From assembly GCA_010093605.1 (NCBI GenBank), contig MU004189.1, positions 317,834-381,833 of the forward strand: a stretch of DNA of 64,000 nucleotides, read 5' to 3'. Under the pieces are notes generated by a model. It was not told where the DNA came from. It ran no database searches and was given only the letters and a program-made list of their open reading frames with translations. Below, piece after piece: positions 43,247-45,650 of the stretch (its first letter is position 1; every line of letters begins with the position of its first letter). A program made the translations under genes and the position numbers. This DNA is from Lophium mytilinum. Taxonomy: Eukaryota.

Positions 43247-44043
43247 GACAAGTGAGCGAGTATGCATCAGACTTAGCGATTGGTGGTGATTGGCATTTGC
43301 GGCTGGCGCACAGATGGGTGGTGCATTGGTGGGGCAGCAGTGAATTGCATGGGGCATGAGGGATGAAAAGCGGTTTGATAGATAGGTTTATGCACCCCTC
43401 TCGGGATATGACTCTTCCTTCATTCTCTCTCTGGTACGGATCGGTTGATAAGGGGCTGTGTTACAAATCGAGGAAGAATGTATCTATGCTCCTTGCGACT
43501 CTTGGAGTGGATTCGTAGGACGCCAACCGGATATACTGCGGTGGAGAACGCATCGCACGGCACAACAGTGGGACATGGTTCATACAGTTCACTGTGATTA
43601 AGACCGGCAGTGCCTACGCACAGTTCAAGTCCTTCATGCTATACAGTGATACGAGACGTGGTTGCTATGTGGGATGAAAGCGGTCGTGGTGCTAGATGTC
43701 AAGTGAATAGGAAGGTACTGGGTGAATTAAGATACAGACTTACCGACACTTACCTGCAATTGGTACTCGGACATATCGGAGTAACGCAGCTTCATCCGCT
43801 TTCACCTTTCACCAGACGCAAAAACCGTGGGGCATATATGGCCCGTGCGCATTCGCCACATGACATAAGTCTGGGCGTCCAGAACCTTAAACTCCTCGGG
43901 CTAAGTGAACGAGCTTTCGCATCTCGAAGAACACCACTCGACCACCTACAACCCACCTACCACCTACATTCCATCTACGCAATCTGTTCTTGCAACCAGC
44001 CTACTGCTCCTTCACACCACACGCACATCTCCAGCCCTCCACC

Positions 44044-44865
44044 ATGTTCAGGAGGATCGCAACCACCGTCCCCGCGACCGCGGGCCGAGTTCTCTCCAGC
44101 GCTGCCAGACCCTCCCTCGCCTCTCCCATACGGACAGCAGCCGCACCCGCGAGCATCGGCGTCAACAGCCGGCGGACCTACCACGAAAAAGATGAGTTCT
44201 CCCTCCCCTTCTTCACCGCCATTATCTCGGGCAATTGGCCACCGCACCTCGGCCATAAAGCGCGGCCCCCTCAATATCTCCGCCATCTCCACCACCCCCT
44301 GCTTGTTCATCCACGACGCTCCGCTGACTAGTTATGCACTGCTCGACCACTACAACAAGCCGCGCAATGTCGGCTCTATGTCCAAGAACGATAACGACGT
44401 CGGCACGGGCCTAGTCGGCGCGCCGGCGTGCGGCGACGTCATGAAGCTGCAGATCCGCGTCGACCCCAACGACAACACCATCTCGGACGTCAAGTTCAAG
44501 ACGTTTGGGTGCGGGAGTGCAATTGCGAGTAGCTCGTATCTGACGGAGTTGGTGCGGGGGATGACGCTGGAGGATGCGGCGAAGATTCGGAATACGGAGA
44601 TTGCGAAGGAGTTGTGTTTGCCGCCTGTGAAATGTGAGTTGTGATCCTATTCTTTTGGAGATGGGAGAGGGGGGTTTGAGGGATTGATTGCTGATGATGG
44701 GGTGTTGTAGTGCATTGCTCCATGCTTGCCGAGGACGCGATCAAATCCGCTATTTCGAATTACTATACCAAGAACCCCAAGGCGCGCGCGACGGATTTGG
44801 GAGGTACTGGGGCGCCGATTCCGAAGGTGGAGATTGAGACGGTGTCCGCGGGGTCAGCGGCGTGA
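44044..44865 (+). CDS. isu1: Mitochondrial Fe-S cluster scaffold Isu1/IscU (exons 44044-44191, 44340-44633, 44711-44865)
   Basis: Presequence MFRRIATT; YHEK/VLDHYNKPRNVGS, GLVGAPACGDVMKLQI, FKTFGCGSAIASSS and LPPVK/LHCSMLAEDAI motifs. The first intron has AT-AC ends. Confidence 0.96.
44192..44339 (+). other. Non-canonical AT-AC intron (148 nt) in isu1
   Basis: 5' ATGAGT, branch GCTGAC at 44323-44328, 3' GCAC. Removal gives AAA G|TG CTC GAC CAC (K-V-L-D-H). No good GT donor restores the motif. Confidence 0.82.
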
Positions 44866-45650
44866 AGGTATCCGAGAGATGTGGGATTGGTGAAAATTTG
44901 AGTCGAGGGACAGGTGGTTGCTGATAACGTCTTTCATACCCTGGGGACTGGGTTTCTATCACTGGAGAGGCGAGGACCACCGAATTCTCCCCTTCTTGTT
45001 GCCTGCGAGTGAGAGGCCTTGATGGCGTTGGGGTTGGCGTGCTTGCTTGCGGTTCTTTTGAGAAGCGAGTCGGATTGAAATTGGTAGTTTGTAGCTTTGC
45101 CCTACGACAGACAGATCTTGAGGAATTAAGCCAATATCAATGAACCTACGATGCTGTGATCGTGATATATTAAGGCGATGGCCGCGTCGTTAATGATGTG
45201 GGGCTCAACATGAAGATAGCGAGACCGCTCAGCTCCATCACACATGGAAAAGCTCTGGAGCGAAGAAATAAGGCGTAGCGGAGGACAGGTTGCTGGTCTA
45301 TGTATGTATCAAGAAAGAACCAGAGTTCATTGGAGCAACCTCAGTTTATGCACCCCAACGGCCAAGGGCTGCAGTCCCCAAGCTCCAGTTATCTCACGCC
45401 ACTGCTCTGACGAATGGCAGACGTGGATGGGATCTGATATCGGGGTATCAGATCAGAGGGCCACTTGTGAGGACCTCAATTATCAACGAGGACCAGATTG
45501 TAATTTGAACCTCTGTGCAAAATTGTACTACGTATGTCTTGATTTAGGACCTCTAGTCTTAGATAGCCTCATGTTGTTCTGTTTTTACGCGATTCGAGGG
45601 TGGTTAGTGTCGGCGGGGCTGAATCGGGCGGAGGATTTGGGGTTCGTCTT

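Follow-up and report, generated by a model that had tools for sequence, protein, structure and literature searches.

The window analysed here, 64,000 nucleotides of Lophium mytilinum DNA, carries the isu1 gene on its forward strand. The gene is interrupted by two introns, one with AT-AC termini and one of ordinary GT-AG type, and its parts are as follows.

44044..44191, + strand: isu1 exon 1, from the mitochondrial presequence through YHEK and base 1 of the Val codon; covered by spliced contigs
44189..44197, + strand: 5' splice site AAG/ATGAGT, 8/9 of the U2-type consensus (AAG/GTRAGT), with A for G at +1
44192..44339, + strand: isu1 intron 1, 148 nt, AT-AC ends, splitting the Val codon in phase 1; skipped exactly in 4/4 runs
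44323..44328, + strand: presumed branch site GCTGAC (CTGAC 44324-44328), the sole YTRAY match in intron 1
44329-44331, + strand: TAG, a bypassed AG 4 nt past the presumed branch A and a stop in the exon-1 frame upon retention
44338..44339, + strand: 3' splice site AC, at the contig joint; AC in 6/6 aligned introns
44340..44633, + strand: isu1 exon 2, core of the IscU/NifU-N domain, 100% identical to the public model P0008; covered by spliced contigs
44634..44710, + strand: isu1 intron 2, 77 nt, ordinary GTGAGT...CTGAT...TAG; joint 44633/44711 in runs X1, X3, and X4
44711..44865, + strand: isu1 exon 3, with the stop TGA at 44863-44865

When intron 1 is read as AT-AC, the spliced product has 198 amino acids and agrees at 198/198 positions with the public L. 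mytilinum model P0008. Exon 1 opens with the start ATG at 44044, encodes residues 1-49 of P0008 plus the G of codon 50, and ends ...TAC CAC GAA AAA G at 44191, while exon 2 opens TG CTC GAC CAC TAC from 44340. The spliced translation contains all of the conserved Cys motifs GAPACGD, FGCGSA, and LHCS together with LPPVK, and P0008 carries the precomputed Pfam domain PF01592, which places the product among the IscU/Isu1 Fe-S scaffolds. The locus is the essential Fe-S scaffold gene (IscU/Isu1) of a Dothideomycete.

Intron 1 reads ATGAGT...GCTGACTAGTTATGCAC, with terminal GCAC and the final base C44339. An enumeration of GT/GC..AG and AT..AC pairs, with donors at 44150-44259, acceptors at 44260-44399, and the frame kept open, returned 40 pairs, and YHEKVLDHY resulted from 44192-44339 only. 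The coordinates and letters given for this junction in the earlier note all hold on inspection of the sequence, as does its claim that only the excision of A44192-C44339 restores YHEK-V-LDHY. It had also described the intron as about twice the usual length, which agrees with 148 nt vs 77 nt for intron 2, and had rightly placed a retention stop at 44329-44331 in the exon-1 frame; the ORF 43909..44331 terminates at this TAG of intron 1. The frame of exon 2 is open for 348 codons back across intron 1 and exon 1 (43598-44644, + strand), and may lure ORF-based callers to an intronless mis-model of isu1.

Contigs from four public runs (X1 to X4, from four studies) all join 44191 to 44340, skipping 148 nt with AT..AC ends and no positional ambiguity (both=0). 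The AT-AC termini thus sit at an RNA-verified junction, as in a U2-type AT-AC intron. The joint is the GAAAAAG/TGCTCGAC predicted earlier from the genomic letters, found exactly as predicted in the transcript-derived contigs, and in 4/4 runs it is this AT..AC joint that is seen rather than a GT-AG or GC-AG junction used in its place, the outcome that the earlier note had named as speaking against its reading. X3 is a recorded metatranscriptome, and X1, X2, and X4 are presumed to be RNA libraries; their contigs are cDNA-like, since those of X2 lack intron 1 and those of X1 and X4 lack both introns, precisely. The X1 contigs show 0 differences from the window. Those of X2, X3, and X4 come from relatives, because many third-codon positions differ from the window; they share the exon junction, and the relatives' own intron ends are not visible in them. 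In X1, X3, and X4 a single contig removes intron 1 and also intron 2 (a skip of 77 nt, GT..AG).

No joint to 44332 and no GT-AG rival was reported among the contigs of the four runs, and no contig retaining intron 1 was listed for them, contigs being unable to show rare forms. Depth was 0 for bins 44196-44306 in all four runs, which we do not take as a sign of efficient splicing since contigs drop rare forms. Within exon 1, four 60-nt contigs of X1 over 44049-44139 had depths of 9217 and 6283 vs 5.4 and 507.5, the low-depth ones carrying one other letter; the spread hints at a variant, or at an error branch, in the presequence-coding part.

The signals within intron 1 are those of the major class. 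Apart from +1 the donor matches the U2-type consensus, as do the /ATAAGT-like donors by which Sheth et al. characterize U2-type AT-AC introns, and a strong /ATAAGT donor is reported as typical of these introns (PMC1557818). The branch A, presumably 44327, precedes the final base of the intron by 12 nt. In the window and in the orthologous introns described below, the putative branch is of U2 type, GCTGAC or GCTAAC, and lies 11-21 nt from the 3' end.

The orthologous introns came from an exon-2 scan of metagenome contigs, with 80 loci listed of 569 confirmed relatives. Among the matches listed, an intron at this codon had AT...AC ends in 5/5 loci (L002, L003, L007, L014, and L015), and no GT-AG intron at this codon occurred among the 80 loci listed of 569. 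The five introns are 90-146 nt long, have the donors AAG/ATAAGT (three), ATAGGT (one), and ATACGT (one), and carry CTAAC at 12, 12, 12, 11, and 21 nt from the intron end. When all six introns are aligned, invariance is confined to the flanking exon sequence, to +1A, +2T, +5G, and +6T, and to the AC at the end. Alignment of isu1 loci had been proposed in the earlier note as a way to look for conserved AT..AC ends and intronic motifs: the ends are conserved in 5/5 orthologues, and the motifs are not.

At three further genomic loci (L001, L006, and L013) intron 2 is kept and intron 1 is missing, so that the genomic tally over eight loci is 5 AT-AC, 3 with the intron lost, and 0 GT-AG. The exon of L015 is 99% identical to a protein of Terfezia boudieri (Pezizomycetes); because it is Terfezia-like, the intron spans Pezizomycetes to Dothideomycetes. 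Judged from these sequences, the intron is old: Dothideomycete-like loci and a Terfezia-like Pezizomycete have it at one and the same codon and in the same phase. Ancient common descent rests here on six genomic introns and on indirect signatures in protein models, in a DNA-level sample without Eurotiomycetes, Sordariomycetes, and Leotiomycetes. The Lys codon in front of it is AAA (A at -2) in 6/6 intron-bearing loci vs 9/22 uninterrupted junctions (hypergeometric p ∼0.013, the loci not being phylogenetically independent), a slight indication that donor strength is under selection. In L002 and L007 (1189-1198 in both) a CAG precedes by 3 nt the CAC at the end of the AT-AC intron, and it is a natural bypassed decoy, since its use would shift the conserved frame. 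L015 retains intron 2 at PPVK/.HCS and has an additional intron inside GAPAC/GDVMK (∼1291-1365) that the isu1 of the window lacks.

Protein models carry the trace of the same intron. Among 315 retrieved proteins there were 214 clean models, 33 read-through, 33 with an alternative N-terminus, 26 with an internal Met, 7 of bacterial type, and 2 others; ∼92/315 models are misbuilt or truncated at the junction, part of the short ones deriving from short contigs and possibly simply cut. Read-through models continue exon 1 as YHxKD..., and the invented N-termini run into xLLDHY. The first search gave 120 matches: 65 clean, 28 YHxKD read-through, 21 without upstream YHxK (some bacterial-type, the rest invented N-termini ending xLLDHY), and 6 without the motif, 3 of which are further read-through. 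A second search added 95 matches (47 clean, 28 internal Met, 19 alternative N-terminus, and 1 read-through), and 2 of its 19 alternative-N-terminus models are really clean YHER variants. All 100 new matches of a third search, which used a Eurotiales query and was aimed at read-through in Eurotiomycetes, Leotiomycetes, and Sordariomycetes, were clean; this is silent on the presence of the intron in those classes, because a query that is itself full-length and clean puts clean models at the head of the ranking. In 28/28 read-through models the Lys is followed by Asp (G/AY), and in several the branch site shows up in translation as QLT, with ∼3-4 residues between it and LLDHY, which corresponds to a spacing of ∼12 nt.

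Many Pleosporales and Botryosphaeriales are affected, along with Mytilinidion, Coniosporium, Geoglossum, Trichoglossum, and Terfezia, and the lichen-forming lineages Candelina, Candelaria, Pycnora, Lambiella, and Loxospora. Gene finders restricted to GT-AG misbuild isu1 because the ends of intron 1 are AT-AC, and a predictor restricted to GT-AG and GC-AG is unable to build the gene in many Pezizomycotina. The systematic mis-annotation foreseen in the earlier note is therefore real for the models of relatives, which are derailed (∼92/315), while the model of L. mytilinum itself, P0008, is correct. In defective models the mitochondrial presequence and YHEKVLDHY are missing or garbled, with effects on localisation predictions and phylogenomics. 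In the close relative Mytilinidion resinicola, model P0178 (178 aa) runs from the presequence straight to PRNVG with YHEKVLDHYNK deleted, a mis-splice unlike the read-through type.

Taken with the contig joint, these data make it very probable that intron 1 is a genuine U2-type AT-AC intron ('AT-AC type II', removed by the major spliceosome) and an old frozen pair of isu1; use of the major spliceosome is what we infer from the motifs and from the literature on the clade. An intron of the minor spliceosome would share the AT-AC termini, and its 10-15 nt optimum from branch to 3' end would accommodate the 12 nt seen here. The spacing alone fits. The ATATCC donor and the TCCTTAAC branch motif are absent from 6/6 introns (window plus five orthologues), so that no intron combines a /ATATCCTT donor with TCCTTAAC 10-15 nt from its end; the donor is ATGAGT or ATAAGT and the branch GCTRAC. 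The spacing was dropped as a U12 relic feature, since it is also the mode of ordinary fungal introns: in another species of Pezizomycotina, a Trichoderma, the branch-to-3' offset is reported to peak at 11-14 nt, with a median intron of 72 nt (PMC4324775). Minor introns, minor snRNAs, or the minor spliceosome are reported as missing in Ascomycota or Dikarya (PMC10639083, PMC2846911, PMC11347168). On its motifs the U12-type reading is close to refuted, and we give it hardly any probability. The earlier note had seen U2-type rather than U12-type signals (donor ATGAGT, branch CTGAC, no ATATCC) and had given as established both that Pezizomycotina are considered to lack a minor spliceosome and that AT and AC termini compensate for each other; the surveys just cited agree with the former, and the rescue of a yeast G1A donor by a last-base G-to-C change, as reported in PMC1557818 and PMC5029451, agrees with the latter.

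A canonical removal of the same region was also considered. One in-frame rival with GT-AG ends exists, GT44196...AG44331 (136 nt, product YHEKDDYALLDHY), and its use, alone or beside the AT-AC splice, would put DDYA where V stands and break the conserved YHEKVLDHY. Its donor, GTTCTC, is poor, its AG lies just 4 nt past the sole branch-site match, and its joint occurs in 0/4 runs against 4/4 for AT..AC; the pair is unconserved, and the nearby GT/AG pairs of orthologues would shift the frame. We regard it as very improbable. Removal of intron 1 in two nested canonical steps was dropped, as the 12 nt left after GT44196..AG44331 offer no second canonical pair, and the joint in the contigs, which is free of positional ambiguity, contradicts it as well. 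Apart from the rarity of AT-AC introns, nothing speaks for assembly or sequencing errors at 44192 and 44339 that would conceal true G...G ends. Two independent errors would be needed, the same AT...AC recurs in five independent metagenomic assemblies, and the Asp (GAY) after Lys in 28/28 read-through models comes from many genomes; this reading is refuted in practice.

For the U2-type AT-AC intron, the splicing reaction can be pictured as follows. U1 and U6 would recognise AAG/AUGAGU, which is consensus everywhere but at +1, and U2 would pair with GCUGAC so that A44327 attacks. The second step would then use C44339, 12 nt downstream of the branch A, since an intron that begins with A must end in C (the non-Watson-Crick first-last interaction), and this demand would explain why the UAG found 4 nt beyond the branch A is skipped. 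In L002 and L007 the CAG 3 nt ahead of the CAC would be skipped likewise. The AT...AC pair would be frozen in isu1 rather than serve as a regulator, most likely because either single reversion would break the splicing of an essential gene. The pattern of loci in which the pair is kept as AT-AC or lost, never GT-AG (5, 3, and 0 of 8), illustrates a two-site fitness valley. With a decoy AG 3 nt upstream in some relatives, the intron offers a clean system for the study of first-last proofreading and of 3' site choice by branch distance.

A regulatory role had been proposed in the earlier note, in which the intron is weak and its retention stop, followed by nonsense-mediated decay, tunes Isu1, possibly in response to iron through GATA and CCAAT cores. 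Several features invite the idea: retention does yield a premature stop at 44329-44331, the AT-AC pair has been kept very long, G1A donors are slow in yeast (as cited in PMC1557818), and the intron is ∼2x the length of intron 2, with orthologues of 90-146 nt vs a reported fungal median of 72 nt (PMC4324775). The ordinary GT-AG introns in orthologues that were to count against it did not turn up (AT-AC in 5/5), and both cores are present as described, TTATCT at 44222-44227 and ATTGG at 44234-44238. They are, however, at background frequency. The window holds 139 copies of HGATAR, where shuffled sequence gives 143.8 +/- 9.8, and 117 of CCAAT, where it gives 128.6 +/- 11.8, so that ∼0.3 of each is expected per 148 nt, and neither motif is found in any of the five orthologous AT-AC introns (0/5). 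The interior of the intron is unconserved, the splice signals alone being invariant, and the conserved intronic cis-elements of a regulated retained intron are thus missing. Fold z-scores of the six introns (+1.25, +0.85, +0.32, +1.07, -1.04, and -2.19) point to no common fold. Rfam gave 0 matches at gathering score across the 64-kb window, and a permissive scan of 43900-45000 gave 2 sub-threshold matches, neither within intron 1. Three lineages have discarded the intron entirely (L001, L006, and L013), and transcription-factor DNA motifs would not act on splicing. The iron-responsive throttle is unsupported rather than disproved, and we hold it to be improbable. An intron-hosted snoRNA was rejected as far as Rfam can see. 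A CCAAT box lies at 43759-43763 (- strand), ∼285 nt upstream of the isu1 ATG; if isu1 has an iron response of the CCAAT-complex/HapX type, the promoter would be a more natural site for it than the intron.

U2-dependent AT-AC introns were reportedly described by Wu and Krainer, and by Dietrich et al. in 1997. In animals such 'type II' introns are known from, for example, SCN4A and SCN5A (Sheth et al. 2006, PMC1557818), and the isu1 intron resembles them in its AT and AC ends, its near-perfect U2-type donor remainder, the lack of U12 motifs, and the conservation of its termini across long evolutionary distances. The donor is /ATAAGT in isu1 relatives, as in the animal introns, and /ATGAGT in the window. 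Unlike the animal introns, that of isu1 is short, has CTRAC 12 nt from its end rather than a 3' site with a polypyrimidine tract, and belongs to a fungal clade without any minor spliceosome. The same first-last pairing logic governs the engineered G1A + G(-1)C double mutants of S. cerevisiae (Parker and Siliciano 1993, as presented in PMC5029451 and PMC1557818): a +1 A is tolerated only with a last C, and AG goes unused. Those are laboratory constructs, whereas the isu1 pair is natural, fixed, and ancient, and sits in an essential gene. Yeast, likewise a fungus that lacks a minor spliceosome, splices a nested AT-AC intron in RPL30, which is reported as a 1-2% side product (PMC5029451); its donor is off the U2-type AT-AC consensus, in contrast to the productive splice and consensus-like donor of isu1.

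In filamentous fungi, AT-AC junctions were recorded by RNA-seq in Fusarium graminearum FGSG_08743 and FGSG_10073 (PMC3577648, text and supplement file 4) and at 69/14305 junctions of Trichoderma longibrachiatum (PMC4324775), make up 0.03% of SnowyOwl models (PMC4084796), and were hypothesised as type II introns in fungal xylanase genes (PMC1557818). The isu1 intron is likewise an AT-AC intron of a filamentous ascomycete that is seen in RNA. In the portions of these four surveys available to us, isu1 is not named and no conservation across classes is reported. The sizes and positions of FGSG_08743 and FGSG_10073 (CDS of 210 nt and 786 nt) do not match isu1. The accessible text of the literature on fungal and U2-type AT-AC introns yielded no prior link of AT-AC splicing to isu1, and literature on ISCU with a U12 or minor intron yielded nothing relevant. 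The class is thus known, and the deeply conserved isu1 case is apparently undescribed: a natural, productive, deeply conserved AT-AC intron of major type in organisms without a minor spliceosome.

The intron may date to the common ancestor of Pezizomycotina and may descend from a U12-type AT-AC intron that the major spliceosome took over at the time Dikarya lost the minor one and that was then locked, a scenario that we consider rather unlikely. Under such an origin A(+1) and C(-1) would be locked since a single step back to G would be lethal, and the sole escape seen is precise intron loss. If true, isu1 would preserve, as a natural fossil, a U12-to-U2 conversion hundreds of millions of years old, and would report in vivo on the first-last nucleotide rule. 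A minor spliceosome is kept in early-diverging fungi such as Basidiobolus and Rhizophagus, and animal ISCU genes may carry an intron near this codon. In Basidiomycete-like isu1 loci (L022, L023, and L028-L037) the K/V codon is intronless; these loci have introns after PRNV, after GAPA, and inside LHCS...LAEDA.
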